Positions 7,119-31,148 of a stretch of 31,729 nucleotides of DNA are shown here, piece by piece. A model generated the notes under the pieces. That model saw nothing but the letters and a program-made list of their open reading frames with translations. It was not told the origin of the DNA and searched no databases. Location: IMG/VR virus record IMGVR_UViG_3300045988_181180. The stretch is one strand, 5' to 3'. The number at the start of each line of letters is the position of its first letter. Within the stretch, counting starts at the first letter, position 1. The position numbers were made by a program, and so were the translations under genes. This stretch comes from a virus (Duplodnaviria > Heunggongvirae > Uroviricota > Caudoviricetes).

Positions 7119-7126
7119 CAAAGATA
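7119..7126 (-). promoter_or_regulatory. Candidate Bacteroidota-type -7 promoter box (coding strand TATCTTTG)
   Basis: Plus strand reads CAAAGATA inside TGCAAAGATA, 16 nt upstream of the ATG at 7102. Confidence 0.45.
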
Positions 7127-7154
7127 GGTATGATGAGAACTATATAAAAATACG

Positions 7155-11396: not shown

Positions 11397-12458
11397 TTAG
11401 TTGAACGTATCGTCGAAGGAGTCGTCGAAGATGCGACCGCCCGTATTGTCGATGTTTTTGAACACGACATTCTGGACTCGCTGGGCATATTGGTAGCTGA
11501 AGGTGAACTCAGCCATGTCATCCAGCTCGTTGGTGCGCTCGCTCTTGGAGTCGGTGAAGGTAATCTCTTTGTCCTGTGTGTAGTCACGGAACAGATAGAT
11601 CTCATCGGAGCGCAGCAGGTCTTCGGCGAAGTGTGCCATGGACGGAGGAATAACACCTGTGTCGCCCTCGAAGGTGCGGGTCTCTTTGACGGAGTAGTTG
11701 ATCTTTTTGCCGCTGATGACGGCGCTCTTGCGCTCGAAGGTAGGTGCAATCTTCTTTTTGCCTAGGCAATAGAAGATCTCTTGGCACCCGAAGGAGTTGG
11801 TGAAGAGGAGCACCGGGTCGGCGACCGCCTCGGTATGGTCTATCTGGAAGTCTTGCACTCGCTTGCCCACGGTGACGGTGTAGGCGAAGAGGTCGCCACG
11901 GTCGGCATCGTAGTAACGGTCGGGCGAGACATCGAAGGTGGTGATGTTATTCACCGTATGGGTAGGGGTGGCATCGGCGGCGATATTGCCCTCCACGACC
12001 TTGCCGTCTTTGTAATATCGGGCTGTGACGGCGGCAGTGGTTCTGTCGGCACCTGCGGCATGGAGATATTCACGGTGTCCGAGCTGTGTGAGCTTGGCAC
12101 CATCGAGGAGGGTGAGGAAGTATTGGTCGAGGAACGACTGGCACGACATGTTGATGTCAACGGTGGCGTAGTAGGCGGTGAACTCGCACGACCAGTTGGC
12201 GACATCGCTCTCGCCATTGTGCTCGACAATCTTGATGGCGCACTTGGCGACCACGGTCGTGCGCACGGCATCGGAGATGAGCGTGCCGAGGTCGTAGATG
12301 GTGATGGTGCCAGCCACTGGGTAGTAAGTCTCGCTGAGCAGCTCTTCGCCCTCGCAGGTTATGGTAACGGTAGCGCGCTCGCCACCTATCTTGAAGGAGA
12401 AGGAGTCGAGCGCACTGGTGAACAATGGCGAAGATGGTTGGTTGGTAACTGTAATCAT
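11397..12458 (-). CDS. Hypothetical virion protein, first gene of the morphogenesis operon
   Basis: 353-aa ORF with ATG start; -7 box TATCTTTG 23 nt upstream; a terminator hairpin lies just upstream of that promoter. Confidence 0.55.
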   Translation of the reverse strand: MITVTNQPSSPLFTSALDSFSFKIGGERATVTITCEGEELLSETYYPVAGTITIYDLGTLISDAVRTTVVAKCAIKIVEHNGESDVANWSCEFTAYYATVDINMSCQSFLDQYFLTLLDGAKLTQLGHREYLHAAGADRTTAAVTARYYKDGKVVEGNIAADATPTHTVNNITTFDVSPDRYYDADRGDLFAYTVTVGKRVQDFQIDHTEAVADPVLLFTNSFGCQEIFYCLGKKKIAPTFERKSAVISGKKINYSVKETRTFEGDTGVIPPSMAHFAEDLLRSDEIYLFRDYTQDKEITFTDSKSERTNELDDMAEFTFSYQYAQRVQNVVFKNIDNTGGRIFDDSFDDTFN

Positions 12459-12481
12459 ATCAATGTCTCATTAAAACGATG

Positions 12482-12489
12482 CAAAGATA
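12482..12489 (-). promoter_or_regulatory. Candidate -7 promoter box (TATCTTTG) for the morphogenesis operon
   Basis: Plus strand GCAAAGATA, 23 nt upstream of the ATG at 12458 and immediately downstream of a terminator hairpin. Confidence 0.5.
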
Positions 12490-12513
12490 GGAAGGAAGGG
12501 GAGAAAATAAAAA

Positions 12514-12542
12514 TACCTGATTGTCATCACGACAACCAGGTA
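12514..12542 (-). terminator. Intrinsic-type terminator after accessory operon A
   Basis: Stem TACCTG-a-TTGTC / GACAA-c-CAGGTA (11 bp with one mismatch, 5-nt loop), followed on the minus strand by TTTTTATTTTCTCC (12501..12513). Confidence 0.5.
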
Positions 12543-15340: not shown

Positions 15341-16024
15341 TTATAGCTTTCCTTTGTCGTGGTAGCTGTAGAAGCCATCCTCAGCCAAGATGATATGGTC
15401 CATCAAGAAAAGTCTCATCACCTCGCACGCCTTGGCTATCTTCTGCGTGAGCATATCGTCCGCCTTGCTCGGCTGCGTGCTGTTCGATGGGTGGTTGTGT
15501 GCCACGGCGATGATGGTTGCATTGTTGAGCACGGCTTCTTTCATTATCAGTCGAACGTCCACCGCTGTCTCGGTGATGCCTCCCTCGCTGAGCTTGGTGC
15601 ACTTTATCAGCCTAAAGTTTTGGTTCATCAGCACTACCCAAAAGCCCTCTGTCTCATTGCAGCCTATCATTGGGCGAAGATAGTTGTAGAGTGCCAGGCT
15701 GCTGCCTAGGTCGGTGTTTCTCGCTACCTTTTCCATTTGGTAGCGTCTGCCTAGCTCGATGGCTGCCTGTAGGGCTATCGCCTTGCAGTCTCCAATTCCT
15801 GGTACCACTTCCAGGTCTTCTATTCTCGCCTTGCCGATGTTGCGAAGCGAGTTGCCCATGATGTTATAAATCTGTCGTGCCTGCTCTTGGCTGTCCTTGG
15901 TACCTGCCCCTCTGTTGATTACCAAAGAAATCAAGTCAACGTTGGTAAGGGTGTCGAAACCTTGGTTATAGGCTCTGTACTGCGGTCTCTCCTCCATACA
16001 AAGATTGTTATAATTTTGTCTCAT
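15341..16024 (-). CDS. radC: RadC-like JAB/MPN-domain protein, full length with N-terminal helix-hairpin-helix
   Basis: 227 aa. Contains the family signature IAVAHNHPSNSTQPSKADDMLTQKI (HNHPS..PS..D) and an upstream HhH-like VPGIGDCKAIALQAAIELGRR. A hairpin terminator follows at 15300..15321. Confidence 0.8.
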   Translation of the reverse strand: MRQNYNNLCMEERPQYRAYNQGFDTLTNVDLISLVINRGAGTKDSQEQARQIYNIMGNSLRNIGKARIEDLEVVPGIGDCKAIALQAAIELGRRYQMEKVARNTDLGSSLALYNYLRPMIGCNETEGFWVVLMNQNFRLIKCTKLSEGGITETAVDVRLIMKEAVLNNATIIAVAHNHPSNSTQPSKADDMLTQKIAKACEVMRLFLMDHIILAEDGFYSYHDKGKL

Positions 16025-16039
16025 ATCTTTTGTTATTTG

Positions 16040-16564
16040 TTAGTTATACATTCTCTTTGTTCTCGCTAGGAACATCGCTCCCATCACTTGTGCGCCACAT
16101 TCGGCTAGCTCGTTGGCGAACTCTCGGGCGGTCGCTCCGCTCGTCACCACGTCGTCGAAGATGATGACTTTCTTTCCGCTGAAGTACTCTCTATCGAGTG
16201 CCACTCTGTAGTCGAAGCTCTCACACACTCTGTCTGTGCTGAAGTGCTTGGCTGTGCGCTCTCCATAGATGGAAATGTGCTCGTTTCCGTTCTGTACCTT
16301 TGCGCCTTGGCTCACCTTTTGGGCGAAGCGAGAAAAGCGCTTGGTGTACTTCTTTGAGTTGGCTGCTGGAGCGCAAACCATCACGAAGTCGCTGGCTTTG
16401 TCGCCATAGGTGTTGACGAAAGAGCTGACCACCATATCGGCAGCTGCGTCTGTCGCCCACTGCTTTCCATCCTTGAAGGCAAAGATGAAGTTTCTCACTT
16501 GCTCTGCTTGTGCTGAGCGGTCGAAACGCTTGGAGCTGTACTCGTAATAATTGAAAGTTTTCAT
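16040..16564 (-). CDS. Type I phosphoribosyltransferase-domain protein (ComF-like PRTase, lacks the ComF zinc-finger N-terminus)
   Basis: 174 aa with the PRPP-binding motif KKVIIFDDVVTSGATAREF near the C-terminus; 15 nt upstream of the radC-like gene on the same strand. Confidence 0.65.
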   Translation of the reverse strand: MKTFNYYEYSSKRFDRSAQAEQVRNFIFAFKDGKQWATDAAADMVVSSFVNTYGDKASDFVMVCAPAANSKKYTKRFSRFAQKVSQGAKVQNGNEHISIYGERTAKHFSTDRVCESFDYRVALDREYFSGKKVIIFDDVVTSGATAREFANELAECGAQVMGAMFLARTKRMYN

Positions 16565-19064: not shown

Positions 19065-19690
19065 AGTGCTTTGTCCTCCTTGACTTCTTCTGTAGGTGTA
19101 TATTCCAAGAGCTGTTCGTCGTAGTCCTCGGCCTCGATCTTGACGAGATCCATGGAGTTGTCGGTGTATTTCTTGACGAGCTTCTTGATGGTCTGCATCA
19201 CGTTAGGGATGCGCTTGAGACCCAAGTGTCGTGGGTCGGTGGTAGGGATGAAGACCTGAGGCTGTATCTGGTCGTAGCCGTTGTCGGTAGGATCCTCTTT
19301 GTCGAGCAGGTGATATTTGCCGTATGCAGCTGCGGCGGCAGCCATGGCTCGGGCATCGCCCATGGAGTCGGCCTTGTCGTAGGTGCGCTGTATCATCTGG
19401 TCGAAGCGATAGCGGGCGAAGTCTTTTGACACTTTTTGCAGGTTGCCCAATATGAGCTTGATGAGGTGCAGGTCGTTGTAAGCCATCATGCGCTGCACCT
19501 TGTAGTCGTGCATATCTTTATAGACCAGCTCTTGGTCGCTCTTGCGAGGGTTGATGAGCCACCAGGCATAGAGGGCACGGATGCGCAAAATGCGGTCGCG
19601 CACTGGGGCGGGCACATTTTGCGCATCCATCTCTTCGGGTGTGCGGTCCATCAGTTCGATGATGGCATCGATGTTGGCGGGTTCTCTCAT
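19061..19690 (-). CDS. Hypothetical protein, terminase small subunit candidate
   Basis: 209-aa ORF translationally coupled (ATGA) to both neighbours and directly upstream of the large terminase. Function is inferred from position only. Confidence 0.45.
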   Translation of the reverse strand: MREPANIDAIIELMDRTPEEMDAQNVPAPVRDRILRIRALYAWWLINPRKSDQELVYKDMHDYKVQRMMAYNDLHLIKLILGNLQKVSKDFARYRFDQMIQRTYDKADSMGDARAMAAAAAAYGKYHLLDKEDPTDNGYDQIQPQVFIPTTDPRHLGLKRIPNVMQTIKKLVKKYTDNSMDLVKIEAEDYDEQLLEYTPTEEVKEDKAL

Positions 19691-21916: not shown

Positions 21917-23026
21917 TTACTCCTTGCCCTCAGCTCCGGTATCGTCTGCAGAAGAATTCTTCTGCTCTGCATCGCTAGCTGTGTTGCTGCTTGCAGGATC
22001 AGCACCTGAACCCTTTGTGATGAGCGATGTGGTACCATCGTTTGTGATGAACAGGGCTCGTTCTTTATTGATGCTCTCGTACTGGCAACCTAAGAACTTG
22101 GTGGCGATGAAGTCGAGCTTCCAAGGGTGGTACTTTTCTACGCTGATCTTCTCCTCGTCGCTGTTGTTTGCCTCGTTGACACCCACGAGCATATTGTTGC
22201 GAGTGGTGAGCTGGAAGAACGGAGCGTTCTTCTTGTTGATGAGTGGTACCATCTCAACGTTGTCGAAACCCTCGACGGTGTTGTGGTTGTAACCGGTATT
22301 GTATGGCACATTGCCAAACTTATTGAGGTAGTTGCGGTTGTAGAGATTGATGAACGCCTGTGGAACGTAGAGATAAAGCTTCTCTTCGCCAATCAGTTCT
22401 TCGTCAGCCTCCTCGCAAATGGCCTGTGCGAAGTCAACGGCGTTATCGCTGCTGATATTCTTACCACTGCCCAAAATATCTGAAACTTTGATGAGGTTGC
22501 CGAGGTCTCGAGACAGCTTGCCATTAGTCAACTCAGTCTTGGCGATGGTATCGAAACCATTGAAGAGGTCTTTTGAGCCTTTGCCCTCGTCGTTGCGCAC
22601 GGCATCGAAGAGGTGGAGGTTGAGGTTCTTGCCCAGCTTGAGCGCCAAGAGCTGCAGCACCTGAAGGGTGATTGGCACGTTCTTAAGCGCTTCGCCATTC
22701 ATGGCGTTGGCCCCCCAAATGGTGGAATAAACTGAGTTCGGGGAGAACTTGATGTCAACGTTGCCGAGGAACACCTGCAAAGTGCGAGGTGTAATCTTTA
22801 CGCCACCATCGCCCACGCGGTTCTCGTCGTATGGACCAAACTCTGCGTTGCCGAGCAACTCGCCCACGGTCTCTGAAACTCTGATGCCCGGGCGCAGGGT
22901 CATGTACTTGAGTGACTGAGCCAAGCCTTTGGTAGGCATCGTAATCAACTTCGAACGGTAAGTTTTCGCAGTGTTCTGCAGCTGTACATCGACATCTACA
23001 GGCACAATGAATTTATTATCTGCCAT
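21917..23026 (-). CDS. Putative major capsid protein
   Basis: The track start at 23035 is a TTG; the first ATG is at 23026, 1 nt after the protease stop. 369 aa, immediately downstream of the prohead protease. The call rests on size and position only. Confidence 0.5.
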   Translation of the reverse strand: MADNKFIVPVDVDVQLQNTAKTYRSKLITMPTKGLAQSLKYMTLRPGIRVSETVGELLGNAEFGPYDENRVGDGGVKITPRTLQVFLGNVDIKFSPNSVYSTIWGANAMNGEALKNVPITLQVLQLLALKLGKNLNLHLFDAVRNDEGKGSKDLFNGFDTIAKTELTNGKLSRDLGNLIKVSDILGSGKNISSDNAVDFAQAICEEADEELIGEEKLYLYVPQAFINLYNRNYLNKFGNVPYNTGYNHNTVEGFDNVEMVPLINKKNAPFFQLTTRNNMLVGVNEANNSDEEKISVEKYHPWKLDFIATKFLGCQYESINKERALFITNDGTTSLITKGSGADPASSNTASDAEQKNSSADDTGAEGKE

Positions 23027-23027
23027 A

Positions 23028-24053
23028 TTATGCAAACTGATTTAAAACATCCAACACTTGATCTGAGCAGAAATCCTCGACCTTGGTGTCATCGACAGCA
23101 GTGTGCGTGTCGCCACCAGGCTCTCCCTCCAGATCCTTCACTTTATCCTTCAGGTCATCTCTCTCCTTTTCGAGATTCTTGACCTTAGTCTCTAACTCCT
23201 TCTTCTCGTCCTTGACCTTCTGAAGCTCTGTGTCTTTGTCGGTCACGGCCTTGGAGTCGGCAGCGATCTTATCCTCCAGTTTCTGCATCTGCTCCTGTGA
23301 GATTGTGCAGTTCTTTGCGGAATCTTCTGCCTCAATGCCCTCGATATTGAGGACATTGTTGATGTGAGTCCATTTTTTGATCATATTAATAATTTTATTT
23401 TGTGATTTATCTTTGCCGAATAATCGGTCGATGATGCTTGGCTTTTTATCATACCAGGAGTTAACAACCTCTGGGAGAACAGGAAGGTTGTTGTACTTGA
23501 TGAAGTCTTGCGTCTGCTCGGTGATGTCGGCAGGCTTGCCATCCATGGCTTCATCGACGAGACCCAGTTCGATGCACTCATCGACGGTGTGCCACATCGC
23601 TTCGGACATCACCTTGACGATGTCCTCGTGCTTCTTGCCCGAGCGATCGCAGTAAACGTTGGCGATGATGTTGTCGATTTTCTGCTGGTTCTCTTGCTGT
23701 TTTTGAAGTTGCTCGATGAGCGAGCCTATCTGCTCCTCGTTGAGCGCAGACCACACAAACTGCTCGGTAGAGCACTTGTGTACCAGGAGCAAGCTATATT
23801 TGCTCATGCGAATCTTGCTGGCACCCATCGCACAGATGGTGGCAGCAGAGGCAGAGAAGCCCGCCTGGAAGTCAACGGTCACGTCGCCATGGGACTTGAA
23901 CATCTGACAGATGGCGAGACCTGCGGAGACCTCGCCACCCAAGGAGTCGATGGCAACATCGACGTGCTTATCTTTGTTGGCCTTAAGAACATCGCGAACC
24001 ATGAGCTTGGTCCACGAGCCAATATATCCTGTGATAGAAATTTGGTACTTCAT
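23028..24053 (-). CDS. ClpP-family prohead protease with C-terminal coiled-coil (scaffold-like) extension
   Basis: 341 aa. N-terminal half has ClpP-like motifs (IDSLGGEVSAGLAICQ and FSASAATICAMGA); C-terminal third is a charged heptad-rich coiled coil. -7 box 23 nt upstream. Confidence 0.7.
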   Translation of the reverse strand: MKYQISITGYIGSWTKLMVRDVLKANKDKHVDVAIDSLGGEVSAGLAICQMFKSHGDVTVDFQAGFSASAATICAMGASKIRMSKYSLLLVHKCSTEQFVWSALNEEQIGSLIEQLQKQQENQQKIDNIIANVYCDRSGKKHEDIVKVMSEAMWHTVDECIELGLVDEAMDGKPADITEQTQDFIKYNNLPVLPEVVNSWYDKKPSIIDRLFGKDKSQNKIINMIKKWTHINNVLNIEGIEAEDSAKNCTISQEQMQKLEDKIAADSKAVTDKDTELQKVKDEKKELETKVKNLEKERDDLKDKVKDLEGEPGGDTHTAVDDTKVEDFCSDQVLDVLNQFA

Positions 24054-24087
24054 ATATCTTTGCGATTTTTACGGCGCAAAGATATAT
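24052..24087. promoter_or_regulatory. 36-bp palindromic element: perfect 13-bp inverted repeat ATATATCTTTGCG / CGCAAAGATATAT with a 10-bp spacer, overlapping the protease start
   Basis: Left arm 24052..24064 is the exact reverse complement of right arm 24075..24087. Each arm contains a TATCTTTG -7 box in opposite orientation; the left arm overlaps the start codon. Confidence 0.6.
24077..24084 (-). promoter_or_regulatory. Candidate -7 promoter box (TATCTTTG) for the head operon, inside a 13-bp inverted repeat
   Basis: Plus strand CGCAAAGATA, 23 nt upstream of the protease ATG at 24053. Confidence 0.5.
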
Positions 24088-24113
24088 AATAATGTATAAG
24101 GATAAAAAAACTT

Positions 24114-24533
24114 TTATTGGATGATTTGGAGCGGTTTTATCACGTCAGACCATGTCACGGTATAAGTGATGAGCGATGAGTCTGTGTGTGAGCTTGGCAT
24201 ATTTTCGGTGCGAGTGAGCACCGGGAAGGGACGCTGGTCTCTGCCCAGAAGATAGGCGCACCCATCGGCGGTAGTCACCTTGTAGGCGAGCGGGTGAACC
24301 TCTGAGTCTATCTGCTCGCTCGACTTGAAGGTGAGCTTTGAAGTGAAAATGCGAACCTTGGACTCAATTTTGTCGGTGATTTCACAACTCGACGGCATTT
24401 TGCACTTTATCTGCTGGAAGACTGCACTTGCAGGAATGATGCAAAGATTTTTGGCTGGGAAGATGACAGCCTTGAGGTCATCGGCTCTCACGACCTCAAT
24501 CTTGATGATGTTTTTGATGTATGACATAAGCAT
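24114..24533 (-). CDS. Hypothetical protein
   Basis: 139-aa ORF with ATG start (alternative ATG at 24527). Confidence 0.45.
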   Translation of the reverse strand: MLMSYIKNIIKIEVVRADDLKAVIFPAKNLCIIPASAVFQQIKCKMPSSCEITDKIESKVRIFTSKLTFKSSEQIDSEVHPLAYKVTTADGCAYLLGRDQRPFPVLTRTENMPSSHTDSSLITYTVTWSDVIKPLQIIQ

Positions 24534-24612
24534 GAAAATTTATCTTTTTGTTTGGAATCGACGGATATTTCGGTTTTGTTCGGAGTTGTTTGCAGAGACG
24601 GAAAAATTTGTA

Positions 24613-25197
24613 TTAATCTTTGCTAAATCTTGTTGTAGATGTTAAATTTACGCCTCTTTTTGCGTGTTGATCACGCATTCTGTAGAAACATTGGCGTACG
24701 GTATCCTCGTAATCGATGCCAATGCCATGCTGTTCGCACCATGCCGAAATGAGCGATGAAAGCTTGCATGAGCGGTCGGCGATGTCTTTGAGCGAAGCCC
24801 AGAGATCCATCTTGAAGAGGTCGGAAATCATCTCTTTGACGGCACGTCTGGCACGTGGCCCGAGGTAGTTGAACTCTCGCACAGGCTTAGCCTTGGAGTC
24901 AGGCAGCTCGATGGCAAGATACTCTTCGGGATGGGTGAGCCATCGGCTCTGCTCGAACTCCTCGTCGTGGAAGGTATGCTTGACACTTTGGTGCAGTTGG
25001 CTGGCATCAGCCTGCTGCATCTCTTGGATGTTCTCTTGGTCGATAGGCGATAGGTTGACAACGGGAGGTCTGCTGGTGAACTTGCGGAGCACAGCCACCT
25101 CGTTGCCGATGGCAGGGAAGACCACTGGGTTGCCATAAGCTCGGTAAGCCCATTGTCTGATGTGGGTAGGAACTTTGATGTAAACAATTGGATTCAT
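24613..25197 (-). CDS. Hypothetical protein, first gene after the iteron region
   Basis: The track start at 25209 is a TTG; the ATG at 25197 sits 20 nt downstream of the -7 box at 25218..25225, matching the spacing seen at the other promoters. Confidence 0.45.
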   Translation of the reverse strand: MNPIVYIKVPTHIRQWAYRAYGNPVVFPAIGNEVAVLRKFTSRPPVVNLSPIDQENIQEMQQADASQLHQSVKHTFHDEEFEQSRWLTHPEEYLAIELPDSKAKPVREFNYLGPRARRAVKEMISDLFKMDLWASLKDIADRSCKLSSLISAWCEQHGIGIDYEDTVRQCFYRMRDQHAKRGVNLTSTTRFSKD

Positions 25198-25217
25198 ATA
25201 GCTATGCAATTTTCGTG

Positions 25218-25225
25218 CAAAGATA
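25218..25225 (-). promoter_or_regulatory. Candidate -7 promoter box (TATCTTTG)
   Basis: Plus strand TGCAAAGATA, 20 nt upstream of the ATG at 25197. Confidence 0.45.
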
Positions 25226-25340
25226 CAAAGAAAATTTGAAATAACTAACGATAATCGGTAAAAACTAACTTTTATCAGTAAATTTGGTGTGATATAATTT
25301 CGTCCGAAAAGTTTGTATTTTTGTATCGTACAAACAAGGC

Positions 25341-25590
25341 TCTGTAACTAGCTGATAATCAATACTATTTTTGTGATACAATTTTCTGATACAGAAATTG
25401 TAACTCTTTAGCTTTTGTAACTTGGGGTTTTGTCGAGGTCGAAGACCTGTAGGAGAAGGGGCTTGTTACAAACTTGAAAAACTTTGTAACCGAGTTGTAA
25501 CGCAACTTTGTAAACATCGGCATGGCGGCTTAACTCACTCTTTTTTAGTTATTTACCTCTTTTGCTAACATTATGTTACAGAGTTACAAA
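25341..25590. repeat. Iteron-like cluster of the octamer TTTGTAAC (4 perfect and 5 one-mismatch copies, both orientations); candidate origin or regulator-binding array
   Basis: Perfect copies at 25414..25421 (+), 25465..25472 (-), 25483..25490 (+), 25583..25590 (-). One-mismatch copies at 25341..25348, 25397..25404, 25494..25501, 25507..25514 and 25575..25582. A given 8-mer is expected about 0.008 times in 250 bp on both strands. Confidence 0.65.
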
Positions 25591-25686
25591 GGATTTGTAT
25601 AAAATAAAAGAAAGGGGTGTGGGGAAAACGATGGCACGGGGCGTGAAGGAGGTTAGAAAAGGCCCATCGAGACACCCAGGACACCC

Positions 25687-25700
25687 CCATTGGCCAATGG
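25687..25700. repeat. Perfect 14-bp palindrome CCATTGGCCAATGG
   Basis: Self-complementary 14-mer in the GC-rich part of the noncoding region between the iterons and the primase terminator. Confidence 0.6.
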
Positions 25701-25741
25701 AGGGGTAGCGAGACGAAACATCGCCCATGGCAACGAAAAAA

Positions 25742-25770
25742 GGGAGCGACGGCCAATGCGCATCGCTCCC
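25742..25770 (-). terminator. Intrinsic-type terminator downstream of the primase-helicase gene
   Basis: 8-bp perfect stem GGGAGCGA / TCGCTCCC with a 13-nt loop, followed on the minus strand by TTTTTT (plus-strand A-run 25736..25741). Confidence 0.55.
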
Positions 25771-25951
25771 TCGTAACATGGGAAAAGAATTATAAATCAG
25801 CAAAAATCTGCCTATGAAATCAGCCCTCGTCTGCTTGCAAAAATAGTGAAAAATTGCTTGAAAATTTAGCCGAAAATATTTGCATAATTCAGATATTTTT
25901 TGTACCTTTGCACTATAACTTGGGGCTATCTATTCTATTATATATGGATGG

Positions 25952-28906
25952 CTAGAAAGGTTTATCACTATCTTTATCTACCTTGCTCCAGTCAATGGTA
26001 GATTGATATTCACCCCCAGCTGCAGGGACATCAGCCTTGGCAGCTTGTTTATCCTCTTTTTTATCATCACTCTTCTTGCTTCGGAGATAGATCATCTCGA
26101 CAGGGCTGCCGTCTGGGTTAGCTGGATCGCGTCTGATGATGCGGTGCTGGCTGTTGCAGAGATCAGCTGGGTTCAGCTCTTGGATGTATGGACACAGCTC
26201 GACGAAGGCTCTGAGCTTTTTGGTGAAGCTCTGTGTGGTCGCCTTGTTGATGCCTGAGAACTGCTTGAAGTCATTGAACGCACGCTCTCTCACGATAAAT
26301 GTATCGAGTCGCTCGCTCTCTTCTGAGAAGTAGGATGCAGCCCAGTCTTCGAAGTTGACACCCATGTCGGCCTTGAACTTGCGCTTGATGATGTTATCCA
26401 TCGGTGGCATGATCTTGATAGGTTCGCCAGCCAAGGAGAGATAGAAACGACAGCACTGCAGGAAAAAGTTGATGTCAGCATTCCACTCATCCTCAGTGTA
26501 TGTCTTTGAGAAGAGATCTTCGTCGAAGTCATCACGGATGCTTCGGGTCTCTTGGTAATCATTCTCCTCTGTGCGCTGATGGTAATAGTCGGAGAACACC
26601 ATATAGAGCAGTCTCGCCTCTGAGGAAGGGTCGAAGTCTGCCGGCACGTAGTTGGTGGTGAAGGCAATCTTCGGGCTATCCTCGAAAGGAATTGTGAAGC
26701 TCTGGTTGTTCTTTGGGTTGACTGTCATATCTGAAGTAATGTTATCGTAAAATAAACCTGTGTTGAGATAGCGGTCACAGTCATCGAGGAGCAGCATCTG
26801 GGTGTGCTGTGTCACCTGATCGAAGACGTGTGGGTTGTCCATCAGCTTAGGGTTGCGTCCGGAAAGCTTGACTGTTTTCATCAGCAGTGAAAGCGTCTTG
26901 AAGAAGAAACTCTTACCGGAACGGCCGTTGCACTCGTTGTTTTCACCAATCTTGTTGTCCATCGCCATCGGAGCCCAAGCCCTGGATGGTGCCTTGTAAT
27001 GATGGAGCATGTAGCCGAAGGTGAAAATCTTGTTTATCAAGTTCTGCTTTTGCTCTTGTATCTCGTTGTCGGCAAGCCCTTCGCCAGCGATGTCGAAGAG
27101 GTGTGCCTTGTGGTATGCCTCTTTCTCCTCGATGCTCTTGTCCTCAAAAGCATACTCTAGCTCTTTGCGCCAGTAGGTGCGAGAGGCGTTGATGAGATAG
27201 CCGAAGAAGTGGGACTTCACGTTCTTGACCTCGATGTCGAACTTCGGCCTGCCATCCTCGTCGATGGTTCGTGTGATGGAGAACATGTCATCCAACTTCT
27301 TGAAGTTGTGGTTGATGACATTCTCTTGCCAAACATAGTTTTTGAGCGAGCTGCCCTCACGCTGGTACTCGTTTAGTCCATCTTTGGTGACCTCGACGCT
27401 GACACGAGGGAAGAAGAACAACTGCGAGTGGTTGGTGTAGCTGGTGAAGTCTAGCGTAATCTCTTGGAGCGAGTCGAGCGCCGATGCCGACAGCTTTGGC
27501 GTGTTGAGCACCAAGTTAAGGATGTCACGCTTCTCAGCTCTCTCGATGACCCATTGGCGGCAGAACTCACGGATGTCTCTCGTGGTGATGAGCTTGACGA
27601 TGTTGCCCGTGATGCGAACATATTTGGTGATGGTCGAGTTGTCATCGTGCAAGGTATAGAAACCATTGAGACGAAGAAAATTGTAGAGGCACGCCGTGTC
27701 GATGTAGTGGTCCCAGGTGTTAGCCTTTTTGTTGAGCTTGCTCACCCAAAATCGGGCTGGCATCGCCAGTGTCATGAGGTTGCGGAAGTCTTTGCGAGTA
27801 TTGCGCAGCTCCATCCAGTCTCGCAGGTCTTTGCGCCCCTTGCCACGGTTGTCGTGGTAGGTGCGAAGCCAAGAAGGCAACCATATCGTATGGATGTCGA
27901 TGAAGCGCAGGGCAAGCTCTGTGCCCTTGGCGATGCCCGTCTCGTCGATGTCGGGTATATTGTAGAGCACCTCGACATACTTCATAATCTCTCGGTACTC
28001 CTCGTCGCTGAGCTTGTAGGTCTCGGAGTTGAACCATAACGGGTTGTAGCCCATGGAACGGCAGCAGAGACTGTCACGCTCGCCACTGCAGATGAAAGCC
28101 TCGGGAAGTTTCTTCTCCTTGTAAGGCTTGGACTCGTCTGTGTTGGTCTTGTTGTACTCAGCCTCTTCACGGCGGTTGAACTCGTGATAGGCAGCCTTCA
28201 GCTCAGCTAGGCCATTGATGTATTGCTTAGGCTTGATGCCGTCTGGGGTGTAAGAGAATCGCCACTGCTTTTGGTAGTTGAGAGGCTCATATATCTTGTA
28301 GAACTTAACCTCAGGCTTGTCGCCTTCAGCTGGGCGAACCAAGCACTCACGCATAAAGATAGGGTAGTGCTCGTTGCTGTGCTTAATCTTGACCTTGCGG
28401 TCTTTGACGTATCCTATCCACTTGGCGGAATGCCAGTTGAGTGCATCGACGTGCTCTTGCTTGACGTTTGGACCCAGTACCTTCAGTTCATCCTCGGTGA
28501 ACTTCTCGTTCAGCTCGAAAGGTCTGGTACCATCTTTCTCGTTGATGGTGGCATCACGCTCTGTGAATGTAGGCTTGTTGACCTCTTTTTTGAGTTCATC
28601 GCTAACGTTGTATTCGGAAGCCAGTCTCAGGATGGCATCAGGAAAGCGGTCGATGCACTTCTCTCTCATGTAGAGGTCGATAGGTGACTCGGCAGAGCCG
28701 TCGCCGCCGAAGTCAGTCACTCGCCAGCAGTCTTTGAACTTTTTGAGACTGCAGGAAGGTGTTTTCTCATTGCGGATGGCAAAGTGCTTTTTAGGCGTGC
28801 CAGTCGTGCAATATTTCTGGACGCATTCTTTTGCGTCCGGGTATAGTGAGATGATGATGTCGAGACCATCATCTGTAGCTTGATAAATTTGTTCTGCTTT
28901 GATCAT
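25952..28906 (-). CDS. Putative replicative primase-helicase (P4/D5-like, SF3-type P-loop NTPase)
   Basis: The track start at 28936 is a TTG; the first ATG at 28906 gives 984 aa. Walker A ECNGRSGKSFFFKTL and Walker B-like MLLLDDCD in the C-terminal half. -7 box TAATTTTG 27 nt upstream; hairpin plus T-tract terminator downstream. Confidence 0.6.
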   Translation of the reverse strand: MIKAEQIYQATDDGLDIIISLYPDAKECVQKYCTTGTPKKHFAIRNEKTPSCSLKKFKDCWRVTDFGGDGSAESPIDLYMREKCIDRFPDAILRLASEYNVSDELKKEVNKPTFTERDATINEKDGTRPFELNEKFTEDELKVLGPNVKQEHVDALNWHSAKWIGYVKDRKVKIKHSNEHYPIFMRECLVRPAEGDKPEVKFYKIYEPLNYQKQWRFSYTPDGIKPKQYINGLAELKAAYHEFNRREEAEYNKTNTDESKPYKEKKLPEAFICSGERDSLCCRSMGYNPLWFNSETYKLSDEEYREIMKYVEVLYNIPDIDETGIAKGTELALRFIDIHTIWLPSWLRTYHDNRGKGRKDLRDWMELRNTRKDFRNLMTLAMPARFWVSKLNKKANTWDHYIDTACLYNFLRLNGFYTLHDDNSTITKYVRITGNIVKLITTRDIREFCRQWVIERAEKRDILNLVLNTPKLSASALDSLQEITLDFTSYTNHSQLFFFPRVSVEVTKDGLNEYQREGSSLKNYVWQENVINHNFKKLDDMFSITRTIDEDGRPKFDIEVKNVKSHFFGYLINASRTYWRKELEYAFEDKSIEEKEAYHKAHLFDIAGEGLADNEIQEQKQNLINKIFTFGYMLHHYKAPSRAWAPMAMDNKIGENNECNGRSGKSFFFKTLSLLMKTVKLSGRNPKLMDNPHVFDQVTQHTQMLLLDDCDRYLNTGLFYDNITSDMTVNPKNNQSFTIPFEDSPKIAFTTNYVPADFDPSSEARLLYMVFSDYYHQRTEENDYQETRSIRDDFDEDLFSKTYTEDEWNADINFFLQCCRFYLSLAGEPIKIMPPMDNIIKRKFKADMGVNFEDWAASYFSEESERLDTFIVRERAFNDFKQFSGINKATTQSFTKKLRAFVELCPYIQELNPADLCNSQHRIIRRDPANPDGSPVEMIYLRSKKSDDKKEDKQAAKADVPAAGGEYQSTIDWSKVDKDSDKPF

Positions 28907-28933: not shown

Positions 28934-28941
28934 CAAAATTA
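28934..28941 (-). promoter_or_regulatory. Candidate -7 promoter box (TAATTTTG) for the primase-helicase gene
   Basis: Plus strand CAAAATTA, 27 nt upstream of the ATG at 28906. Confidence 0.4.
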
Positions 28942-29074
28942 TTGCAAGGCGAGTTCAAAACAAAATACTTATTTTTTGTCGCATAGAGCCTTTGGCTCAT
29001 ACTCGACGTATCTGTGGAGAGGGTGGCAGTATCTGCCATTGATGCAGTTGCTGCCATCCTCGCACTTTTGGCAT

Positions 29075-29799: not shown

Positions 29800-29807
29800 T
29801 AATTTTG
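29800..29807 (+). promoter_or_regulatory. Candidate -7 promoter box (TAATTTTG) for the HTH regulator gene
   Basis: Only TAnnTTTG match in the divergent intergenic region on the plus strand; 96 nt upstream of the ATG at 29904, so it would imply a long leader. Confidence 0.3.
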
Positions 29808-29810
29808 TTG

Positions 29811-29818
29811 CAAAGTTA
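29811..29818 (-). promoter_or_regulatory. Candidate -7 promoter box (TAACTTTG) for the early operon
   Basis: Plus strand CAAAGTTA, 28 nt upstream of the ATG at 29782; back to back with a plus-strand box at 29800..29807. Confidence 0.45.
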
Positions 29819-29903
29819 GTAATAAAAATCGGAAAATACTAACGAAAGTAAGTAAAAACACCTATGATAATAGGTTAAATATTATTAATTAAATTAGATA
29901 ATT

Positions 29904-30281
29904 ATGTTTAATGGTCAGATAATCAGAAAGTTAATGTCGGATGCTGGCTTAACTAAAAAAGAGTTTGAAAGACGTATGTTCGGTAGTAAATCGACCGACC
30001 TCAACCATTTGGAAAAAGCGAAGAATCTTCGCAGTGACACTCTCGAACGTCTGCGTGAGGTGTTGAAGTGCTCTATGGATGACTTCTTTACAGCACCCTC
30101 ATGGGCTGAGAACGGAAAGGGGACAGTCGTAGGCTCTAACAATGTGCTGTCAACAGTAGCCATCGGCAACGAAGTGATGGAAGCCCAATATCTCAAGGAG
30201 TTGCTCTTGGAGAAGGACAAACGCATCAGCACTTTGGAAAATTATATCAAGCTTCTGGAGACTAACTTAAATAAGGACTAA
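29904..30281 (+). CDS. HTH (XRE/Cro-CI-like) transcriptional regulator with C-terminal coiled coil; repressor candidate
   Basis: 125 aa. N-terminal segment SKSTDLNHLEKAKNLRSDTLERLREVLKCSMDDFF resembles XRE-type HTH domains. Only plus-strand gene of the element and divergent from the early operon. Confidence 0.6.
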   Translation: MFNGQIIRKLMSDAGLTKKEFERRMFGSKSTDLNHLEKAKNLRSDTLERLREVLKCSMDDFFTAPSWAENGKGTVVGSNNVLSTVAIGNEVMEAQYLKELLLEKDKRISTLENYIKLLETNLNKD

Positions 30282-30494
30282 TACGAAACATAATTCGTAA
30301 GATGAATCCTTATATATAATAAGGTGTATAAAATATATCGTATAATCTCAGCAGTGATATCCAACTCGTTAGTCTTGCCGCCGCAACAATGCAAATCGGG
30401 TAGAAAGTTGTTCTTCAACATTCTATCCGATATTTTTTTTATCCCTTTATTTATAATTTAACACTAAATATTTGCATATATCGAATAAAACAAC

Positions 30495-30502
30495 TAATTT
30501 TG
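30495..30502 (+). promoter_or_regulatory. Candidate -7 promoter box (TAATTTTG) for the TetR-family gene
   Basis: TAATTTTG 49 nt upstream of the ATG at 30552. Confidence 0.3.
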
Positions 30503-30551
30503 CACACAGATATTTTTATGTGCAATCATTTTAATTAGGAGGGACTTCAAT

Positions 30552-31148
30552 ATGTCAATTTCCAAAACAAGACAAAAGTTAGTAGATGTTGCTCGACAAC
30601 TGTTTGCTAAGAACGGTATAGCTAATACCACTATGAATGATATTGCTGTAGCTTCTGGTAAGGGTCGCCGTACGCTCTATACGTATTTTAGCAGAAAAGA
30701 AGATGTCTATTATGCTGTGATAGAATCAGAGTTGGATCGTTTGTCTGAGAAACTCGATGAAGTTGCCTCTTGCAAAATGCGTCCTCAAGATAAAATCATT
30801 GAGCTTATTTATACACATCTCAGTATGATTAAGGAAACTGTAGTTCGTAATGGTAATTTGCGAGCTGAGTTTTTCCGTAATATCTGGATGGTAGAGAAGG
30901 CTCGCAAGAATTTTGATGAGGATGAAATTGAGATTCTGAGAAAGATTTATTCTGAAGGAAAGGAAGACGGTGAGTTTGACATTGATAATGTTGATCTCGT
31001 TGCAGATATTACTCATTATTGTATCAAGGGCTTGGAAGTACCATTCATCTATGGACGCCTGGGACATGGACTGAATGTGCAATCAAGCAGACCTCTTGTT
31101 GCTAAGGTAGTATATGGTGCCTTAGGTAAATCTGGATTGAAATTGTAA
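30552..31148 (+). CDS. TetR/AcrR-family transcriptional regulator
   Basis: 198 aa. N-terminal TetR-type HTH signature (RQKLVDVARQLFAKNGIANTTMNDIAVASGKGRRTLYTYF). AGGAGG sits 9 nt upstream of the ATG; AT-rich. Confidence 0.85.
   Translation: MSISKTRQKLVDVARQLFAKNGIANTTMNDIAVASGKGRRTLYTYFSRKEDVYYAVIESELDRLSEKLDEVASCKMRPQDKIIELIYTHLSMIKETVVRNGNLRAEFFRNIWMVEKARKNFDEDEIEILRKIYSEGKEDGEFDIDNVDLVADITHYCIKGLEVPFIYGRLGHGLNVQSSRPLVAKVVYGALGKSGLKL

Follow-up and report, generated by a model that had tools for sequence, protein, structure and literature searches.

A promoter-embedded inverted repeat that may gate translation of the prohead protease gene in a Bacteroidota prophage

The stretch of DNA analysed here (the window, 31,729 nt, IMG/VR record IMGVR_UViG_3300045988_181180) comes from a prophage-like temperate phage of a gut bacterium belonging to the Bacteroidota. 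A scan of genome contigs for relatives returned two loci, one of them in a Segatella copri MAG, while a blastn search of the INPHARED phages with positions 23000-25300 gave no match. The genes around the inverted repeat described below all lie on the minus strand. The ORF at 23028..24053 (-) encodes a ClpP-related head maturation protease, as judged from matches to PHROG (1.5e-29), Pfam CLP_protease (4e-14) and NCBIfam Clp_rel_HeadMat (2e-25), and the C-terminal part of the protein is coiled-coil, possibly a scaffold domain. Its ATG is at 24053-24051, and this start codon can be regarded as fixed because the N-terminus is conserved in homologues down to approximately 30% identity. The downstream gene (21917..23026, -) codes for a 369-aa putative capsid protein; searches against PHROG, Pfam, NCBIfam and PDB sequences gave no matches and the single-sequence AlphaFold model (pLDDT 31.7) was of no use. 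Since the ATG of the 369-aa gene lies 1 nt past the protease stop (TAATATG), its translation is probably coupled to that of the protease.

Upstream of the protease, across a gap of 60 nt, lies a gene for a 139-aa protein (24114..24533, -), itself preceded by a gene for a 194-aa protein (24613..25197, -; MNPIVYIKVP...), which is the first gene of the upstream transcription unit. Family searches with these two proteins and with the 994-aa upstream protein gave no informative matches. In all lineages, distant relatives included, the 194-aa and 139-aa genes keep their synteny with the protease. They could be head genes in their own right, in which case an early-versus-late logic for the two transcription units would lose force. 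The scan for terminator-like sites found none between the 139-aa gene and the protease ATG (24054-24533), and transcripts of the 139-aa gene would run into the hairpin discussed below.

The inverted repeat has its arms at 24052-24064 (ATATATCTTTGCG) and 24075-24087 (CGCAAAGATATAT). A repeat search together with inspection of the sequence showed these to be 13 nt each and 100% complementary, in agreement with an earlier sequence-only reading of this DNA, which had described exact reverse complements 10 bp apart. That reading had further called the element a 36-bp perfect palindrome; the arms are indeed perfect and the whole measures 36 bp, but the 10-nt spacer is asymmetric, so that in strict terms the element is an interrupted inverted repeat rather than a palindrome running through without a break. 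Read in gene orientation it is TTATATATCTTTGCG-CCGTAAAAAT-CGCAAAGATATATG, that is, a 5′ arm (24075..24087, -; ATATATCTTTGCG in this orientation), from which the RNA stem extends to 24089, a 10-nt loop (24065..24074, -; CCGTAAAAAT) that is variable among relatives, and a 3′ arm (24050..24064, -) consisting of CGCAAAGATATAT plus G and A, which covers the entire AUG in the RNA fold. At the level of DNA the arm at 24052-24064 overlaps the A and T of the protease ATG and the opposite arm carries the -7 box of the head operon, a placement that had been correctly recognised. It is the only perfect inverted repeat in the 31.7-kb window that combines arms of 13 nt or longer with a spacer no longer than 20 nt; 300 dinucleotide-preserving shuffles give a mean expectation of 0.010 per window. 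The element does not resemble an intrinsic terminator, as an AT-rich stem precedes GAAGUACC, in place of the combination of a GC-rich stem and U tract, and a scan for sigma-70 promoters and terminators found nothing at the repeat.

Both arms contain TATCTTTG, which matches the Bacteroidota -7 consensus TAnnTTTG, so that two opposed -7 boxes are indeed present, at 24084-24077 (-), inside the arm 24087-24075, and at 24055..24062 (+). The minus-strand box belongs to the promoter of the protease and head operon; it is kept in 104 of 105 close relatives and is also conserved in distant lineages. At the position of the -33 element lies GTTTTTT (GTHTTTT; 24105..24111, -), ending in TTTT rather than TTTG, with its G located 27 nt upstream of the T of the -7 box. 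[quoted passage not shown] The protease promoter is similar to this in its exact match to TAnnTTTG, its AT-rich spacer and a distance from box to ATG in line with a modal 5′ UTR of about 23 nt, but differs in possessing GT(C/A/T)TTTT at a rigid distance upstream. The G of this element is found 27 (+/-1) nt before the -7 box in 20 of 20 protease promoters, covering 30-100% protein identity, and the element is missing from the neighbouring, early-type promoters two genes upstream of the protease, which suggests that GTHTTTT may mark a phage-specific promoter class rather than a generic -33 box. Promoters of this type (GTHTTTT-N20-TAnnTTTG, class A) occur as four exact sites in the window, with none expected, preceding the 994-aa gene, the protease, a 353-aa gene and a 1159-aa gene. 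As the -7 element of Bacteroides promoters is centred at -7 and their modal 5′ UTR is 23 nt (PMC7366714), transcription from the protease promoter is expected to start at approximately 24073, 4 nt past the G of the box and within the loop of the repeat.

The promoter of the 194-aa gene (25218..25264, -) is of a different kind. Its -7 box (TATCTTTG, 25225-25218) is preceded by TTTTTAC-N6-TCGTTAGT (25264-25244), an arrangement (class B) that it shares with the leftward promoter of the immunity region. Across relatives the two copies of the motif change together, in step with the Cro/CI-type protein, from CGTTAGT to TATTAGT and then to C(C/A)T(A/T)AG(T/G). Because this motif is shared with the immunity region and co-varies with the Cro/CI-type protein, the upstream promoter appears to be early-type and differently regulated, and we infer that it is under immunity-type control and belongs to a regulatory class other than that of the protease promoter.

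Folding of the read-through leader, a check that the sequence-only reading had proposed, predicts a 15-bp stem of -16.7 kcal/mol (z -4.5) that buries the AUG, a fold equalled by none of 200 shuffles. The stem is composed of 13 Watson-Crick pairs, one G.U pair (the G of the AUG with U) and one U-A pair, and both the MFE and the centroid structures still contain it when 240 nt of sequence are folded. An RNA starting at 24073, which by its geometry has its 5′ end inside the loop and is without the 5′ arm, is predicted to be unstructured (-2.7 kcal/mol). Opening of positions -3 to +6 has a predicted cost of 8.55 kcal/mol in the read-through RNA versus 2.63 kcal/mol in the RNA from the protease's own promoter; with the upstream sequence shuffled the cost is 3.59 +/- 1.40 kcal/mol, and 0 of 100 shuffles reach 8.55. 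The AUG is predicted to be closed for any 5′ end at or before 24088 and open for any 5′ end at or after 24084, so that the precise point of initiation has no bearing on its opening in the shorter transcript.

Close relatives of the locus were collected from IMG/VR (at least 538 protease loci, 80 being listed per scan), metagenomes and genomes, giving 105 loci with 79-100% protein identity. Pairing of the arms is 13/13 in 10 of these, 12/13 in one and 11/13 in 93, and hence at least 11/13 in 104 of the 105. The arms are conserved much better than the intervening loop, which varies freely in sequence and measures 11 nt in 89 loci but 10 nt in the other 16, and RNAalifold applied to the close relatives recovers the same stem independently. 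It should be mentioned that the 5′ arm is constrained by promoter function in any case. Covariation within this clade is weak, and neither proves nor disproves pairing: 88.5% of cells are paired and there is just one doubly changed pair, T-A in the group of the window and A-T in others, at a position that is mismatched (A.C or U.C) in other relatives. This double change could reflect templated quasi-palindrome correction rather than selection.

Such observations bear on the possibility that the repeat has no function of its own, the 5′ arm being simply promoter and the 3′ arm a drifting leader whose complementarity arose from templated quasi-palindrome mutation or from a local duplication in inverted orientation. 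This is considered unlikely. It would agree with the small number of loci with perfect arms, most having 11/13, and with the single-sided pair changes, which outnumber the compensated ones in the close clade, but it does not account for the far better conservation of the arms than of the loop. Imperfect pairing may also suffice, as one 11/13 variant (L015) is still strongly occluded, with an opening cost of 8.50 kcal/mol (p = 0.01), although two others are weaker (L005, 5.35 kcal/mol, p = 0.09; L016, 3.97 kcal/mol, p = 0.17).

Palindromic operators placed over promoters are well known, for example those of the TetR/QacR or Cro/CI type, and the sequence-only reading had seen in the repeat an operator for a dimeric regulator. 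Accordingly, a dimeric or dimer-of-dimers protein could bind both 13-bp half-sites and repress the head promoter, for instance in the lysogen. Like such operators, the repeat spans core promoter and start site, the stretch of -7 box, start site and leader being typical for repressor sites; the arms are perfectly symmetric and the repeat is far above chance. Moreover, a promoter with good core elements in a prophage needs some silencing, a Cro/C1-type HTH protein is encoded in the window (29904-30281), and the symmetric change from T-A to A-T would fit co-evolution of half-sites equally. Unlike these operators, the repeat has half-sites whose centres lie 23 bp from each other, and neither a cognate regulator nor a second site was found: no other intergenic copy of the half-site within 2 mismatches exists in the 31.7 kb, the one additional copy lying inside a coding region, and the half-site is absent from the other three class A promoters (28941, 12489, 7126). 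Symmetric half-sites at a fixed spacing are also not what the relatives display, since in 93 of 105 the half-sites differ at 2 positions, with the changes mostly in the leader arm, and the spacer is either 10 or 11 nt. With no positive support emerging for it, an operator is judged quite improbable.

Two candidate regulators were considered and rejected. The Cro/C1-type protein diverges together with the phage, but its apparent motif (TCGTTAGT-like), the one co-varying with it, is absent from the arms. A TetR gene is situated at the end of the window and is 99-100% identical across contigs that share only about 82% identity in their phage genes, including phages in which the arms differ; it does not co-vary with the arms and in relatives it lies at or beyond the contig ends. 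Owing to this near-identity across divergent phages and its position at contig ends, the TetR gene is probably host flanking DNA.

The mirrored -7 box on the plus strand had been suggested to drive an antisense transcript into the upstream gene, and face-to-face promoters of this kind might also interfere with the sense promoter. The match to TAnnTTTG is exact, and the immunity region of the same phage has real-looking opposed -7 boxes at 29800-29807 (+) and 29818-29811 (-), each facing a gene. The mirrored box is, however, destroyed (CTTAG) in 72 of the 105 close relatives, and the plus strand has neither TTTG at -33 nor the GTHTTTT found in the sense protease promoters. The sole downstream ORF on this strand is a mechanical one with a TTG start (24325-24645), antisense to the 139-aa gene, and the covariance models of Rfam 15 gave no match at E <= 1 across 23500-26000. 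Antisense transcription from this point is therefore very unlikely, and the mirrored box is probably nothing other than the complement of the 3′ arm.

More distant protease loci (30-72% identity) were gathered, among the matches listed, regardless of their upstream sequence, and similar leaders were collapsed, resulting in 31 independent protease lineages. Occlusion was scored where the cost of opening the read-through RNA exceeded that of at least 98% of upstream shuffles while the own transcript was open. By this measure the AUG is predicted to be occluded solely in the read-through RNA in nine of the 31 lineages (the window clade, L116, L169, L174, the L176 clade, L194, L278, L274, and L277), with unrelated arm sequences. 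Two of these, L278 (TAATATTGCAAT...TTGCAATATG) and L277 (ATGCCTAACATTG...CAATTGTTAGGTATG), repeat the layout of the window exactly, the 5′ arm falling over the -7 box and the 3′ arm over the first two letters of the ATG. Members of the L176 clade retain the arms GGCAUAG/CUAUGCC even though the loop has expanded from 12 nt to 47 nt in L186, a change compatible with pairing in RNA but not with a protein site whose geometry is fixed. The same applies to the lineages taken together, as complementarity is preserved with unrelated arms, in different registers and through this change of loop, as expected for RNA pairing but not for a conserved protein site.

As controls, 24 leaders of other promoter-proximal starts from the same loci were used, of which one reached the shuffle criterion. 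The difference between the read-through and own-promoter RNAs lies above that of all 24 controls in 9 of 31 lineages (Fisher p = 0.003), and in a Mann-Whitney comparison of protease with control leaders this promoter-dependent difference gave p = 0.018, the raw read-through cost being only marginally distinct between the two sets (p = 0.07). Such recurrence of one architecture with unrelated sequences argues against a repeat devoid of function, although the two thirds of lineages without significant structure are in keeping with one. Among the 22 lineages that remain, two give borderline values, L296 (p = 0.04) and L180 (p = 0.06). Occlusion of the AUG is not universal, since 20 of 31 lineages show none beyond that of shuffles.

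The distant lineages are also informative as regards a role in RNA processing or stability, in which the stem would undergo RNase III-type cleavage or act as a protective hairpin, separating the protease cistron from the upstream RNA. A perfect duplex of 13-15 bp between cistrons would be compatible with this. Usual RNase III substrates, however, are duplexes of around 20 bp, longer than the present stem, and in every positive lineage the 3′ arm sits on the AUG and not elsewhere in the spacer. A protective 5′ hairpin would in addition need both arms in the transcript from the protease's own promoter, which does not have both. Processing is thus regarded as highly improbable.

Hiding of the start codon by a hairpin in read-through transcripts, as first put forward from the sequence, is the best-supported reading, the predicted fold being strong, specific to the 5′-extended RNA, kept in relatives and recurrent with unrelated arms. 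The repeat may accordingly be a translational gate embedded in a promoter, of the type known from genes e and soc of phage T4, in a host that does not use Shine-Dalgarno sequences, a proposal to which we attach moderate confidence, near the midpoint of the scale. The protease would have its own sigma-ABfr-type promoter (GTTTTTT, 20 nt, TATCTTTG), the -7 box of which would double as the 5′ arm of the hairpin, with the 3′ arm covering the protease AUG. RNA from the promoter near 25225, carrying the 194-aa and 139-aa genes, would read through the 60-nt gap, and with both arms present it would form the 15-bp stem over the AUG. The protease would then not be translated from this RNA, because the ribosomes of the host make no use of Shine-Dalgarno sequences and need a start region free of structure, and the 369-aa gene would likewise be silenced on it since its start lies 1 nt after the protease stop. 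RNA from the protease's own promoter would start in the loop (~24073) without the 5′ arm, leaving the AUG open. We infer the start site, the upstream read-through, the early-versus-late timing of the promoters and the effect on translation, and it is because every step beyond sequence and prediction is of this nature that confidence is set at this level. As regards the host, two reports describe Bacteroidia ribosomes as working without Shine-Dalgarno pairing, with initiation tuned by mRNA structure (PMC6847099, PMC7797042).

In phage T4, the longer early transcripts of gene e form an inhibitory helix that cuts lysozyme synthesis 100-fold, and in the case of e, soc, 49, and I-TevI the 5′ strand of the helix harbours the late promoters, such that late transcripts are without this strand and are translated (PMC3014915). 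The protease locus shares with these genes a hairpin predicted to sequester the AUG in the 5′-extended transcripts from an upstream promoter, as well as, by motif and geometry, a promoter of the gene's own within the 5′ strand, which its own transcripts lack. Both settings are those of a phage gene with a late, structural or lytic function, and as in the T4 system the arrangement is present in some relatives and missing in others. Unlike T4, the phage here is temperate and a prophage, with a Bacteroidota host (Segatella copri MAG match), and its promoter is of the sigma-ABfr type with -7 and -33 elements in place of the gp55 late promoter TATAAATA. There is also no Shine-Dalgarno sequence to hide, the stem covering the AUG itself, and the gated gene is a prohead protease, with the next gene probably coupled to it; in addition, the present case is a computational prediction. 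The literature searched contained no description of such hairpins in Bacteroidota phages, and while the principle is known, its setting in a Bacteroidota prophage with a sigma-ABfr-type promoter, SD-less initiation and a prohead protease appears to be undescribed there.

A broader proposal can be advanced more tentatively, and with somewhat less than even confidence. Across a broad group of Bacteroidota siphophages, the GTmTTTT-N20-TAnnTTTG promoter preceding the ClpP-type prohead protease may repeatedly have become one strand of an AUG-masking hairpin, resulting in an isoform-specific switch that would enforce late expression of head genes in SD-less hosts, with the upstream promoter of the masked isoform under the control of the immunity repressor. 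Gene regulation in Bacteroidota phages is almost unmapped. Accessibility of the start codon should be an unusually strong lever of control in Bacteroidota hosts, because these initiate translation without Shine-Dalgarno pairing. If true, the gate would provide a simple rule readable from sequence (complementarity between the -7 box and the region of the start codon), reveal by what means abundant prophages of the gut silence head genes on read-through RNA and carry the principle of T4 genes e and soc over to a different phylum and type of promoter. Synthetic biology in Bacteroides and Segatella would then also gain a compact, promoter-dependent translational insulator. Two by-products of the analysis, the GTmTTTT-N20-TAnnTTTG class of promoters with its rigid spacing and the operator motifs co-varying with the Cro/CI-like protein, may match or exceed the palindrome in practical value, for example in phage annotation.

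Four large genes of the window are preceded by a promoter layout with fixed spacing, GT(C/A/T)TTTT-N20-TAnnTTTG (class A), in which the second element is the Bacteroidota -7 box. These sites, all on the minus strand and identified by motif match, lie ahead of the genes for a 994-aa protein (28934-28968), the ClpP-related head maturation protease (24077-24111), a 353-aa protein (12482-12516) and a 1159-aa protein (7119-7153), a count of four against an expectation of zero for the window. Outside the window, the layout was examined in loci of related phages (L112-L116, L169-L196, and L257-L336), and the protease gene was found to be preceded by it in 20 of 20 lineages, with protein identity as low as 30%. 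It was not found at the neighboring early-type promoters. The layout may be the mark of a phage-specific, perhaps late, promoter class.

Two of these promoters possess additional features. For the 353-aa gene (12458-12516, minus strand), the AUG is predicted to be occluded only in RNA reading through from upstream, its opening costing 6.26 kcal/mol in that RNA vs. 2.30 kcal/mol in RNA from its own promoter (p = 0.02); the GATA immediately 5′ of the ATG pairs with a TATC from the -7 box. In the promoter of the 994-aa gene (28934-28960, minus strand), the -7 box is overlapped by a 7-nt inverted repeat, CTTGCAA-TAATT-TTGCAAG.

The promoter of the 194-aa gene, first in the upstream transcription unit, and the leftward promoter of the immunity region have the sequence TTTTTAC-N6-TCGTTAGT in common (25244-25264 and 29838-29858, minus strand, sequence match). 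Comparison of loci L225-L256 from related phages with their matching protease loci showed that, from one phage lineage to another, a repeated motif of the TTAGT type changes in parallel at both promoters and in step with the Cro/C1-type HTH protein. Both sites are likely to be repressor operators. The immunity region also has two opposed -7 boxes at 29800-29818, TAATTTTG-TTG-CAAAGTTA, the plus-strand box directed toward the Cro/C1-type gene and the minus-strand box toward the leftward operon; judged from its sequence, this is the layout of an overlapping divergent switch.

The TetR-family gene (30552-31148, plus strand) is 99-100% identical among contigs whose phage genes share only about 82% identity, and is positioned at or past the ends of IMG/VR contigs. 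This gene probably belongs to the host, in which case the prophage would end near 30300-30550.

A stretch of 740 bp (25210-25951) is without genes. It has a -7 box (25845-25838) followed some 100 nt on by a strong terminator-like hairpin (about 25770-25735, GGGAGCGA...TCGCTCCC plus a T run), which together could specify a small RNA, as well as numerous GTTACAA/TTGTAAC repeats (about 25300-25600) that look like iterons. Two further inverted repeats are also strong, a perfect one of 14 nt (13458-13471/13524-13537, arms 52 nt apart) and one of 21 nt in the region of a 209-aa ORF (19579-19628, arms 86% complementary, 8 nt apart). Between the tail genes and the terminase region (15341-16564, minus strand) lie genes with a RadC-like JAB domain and a phosphoribosyltransferase domain, these being cargo or accessory genes within the structural region.
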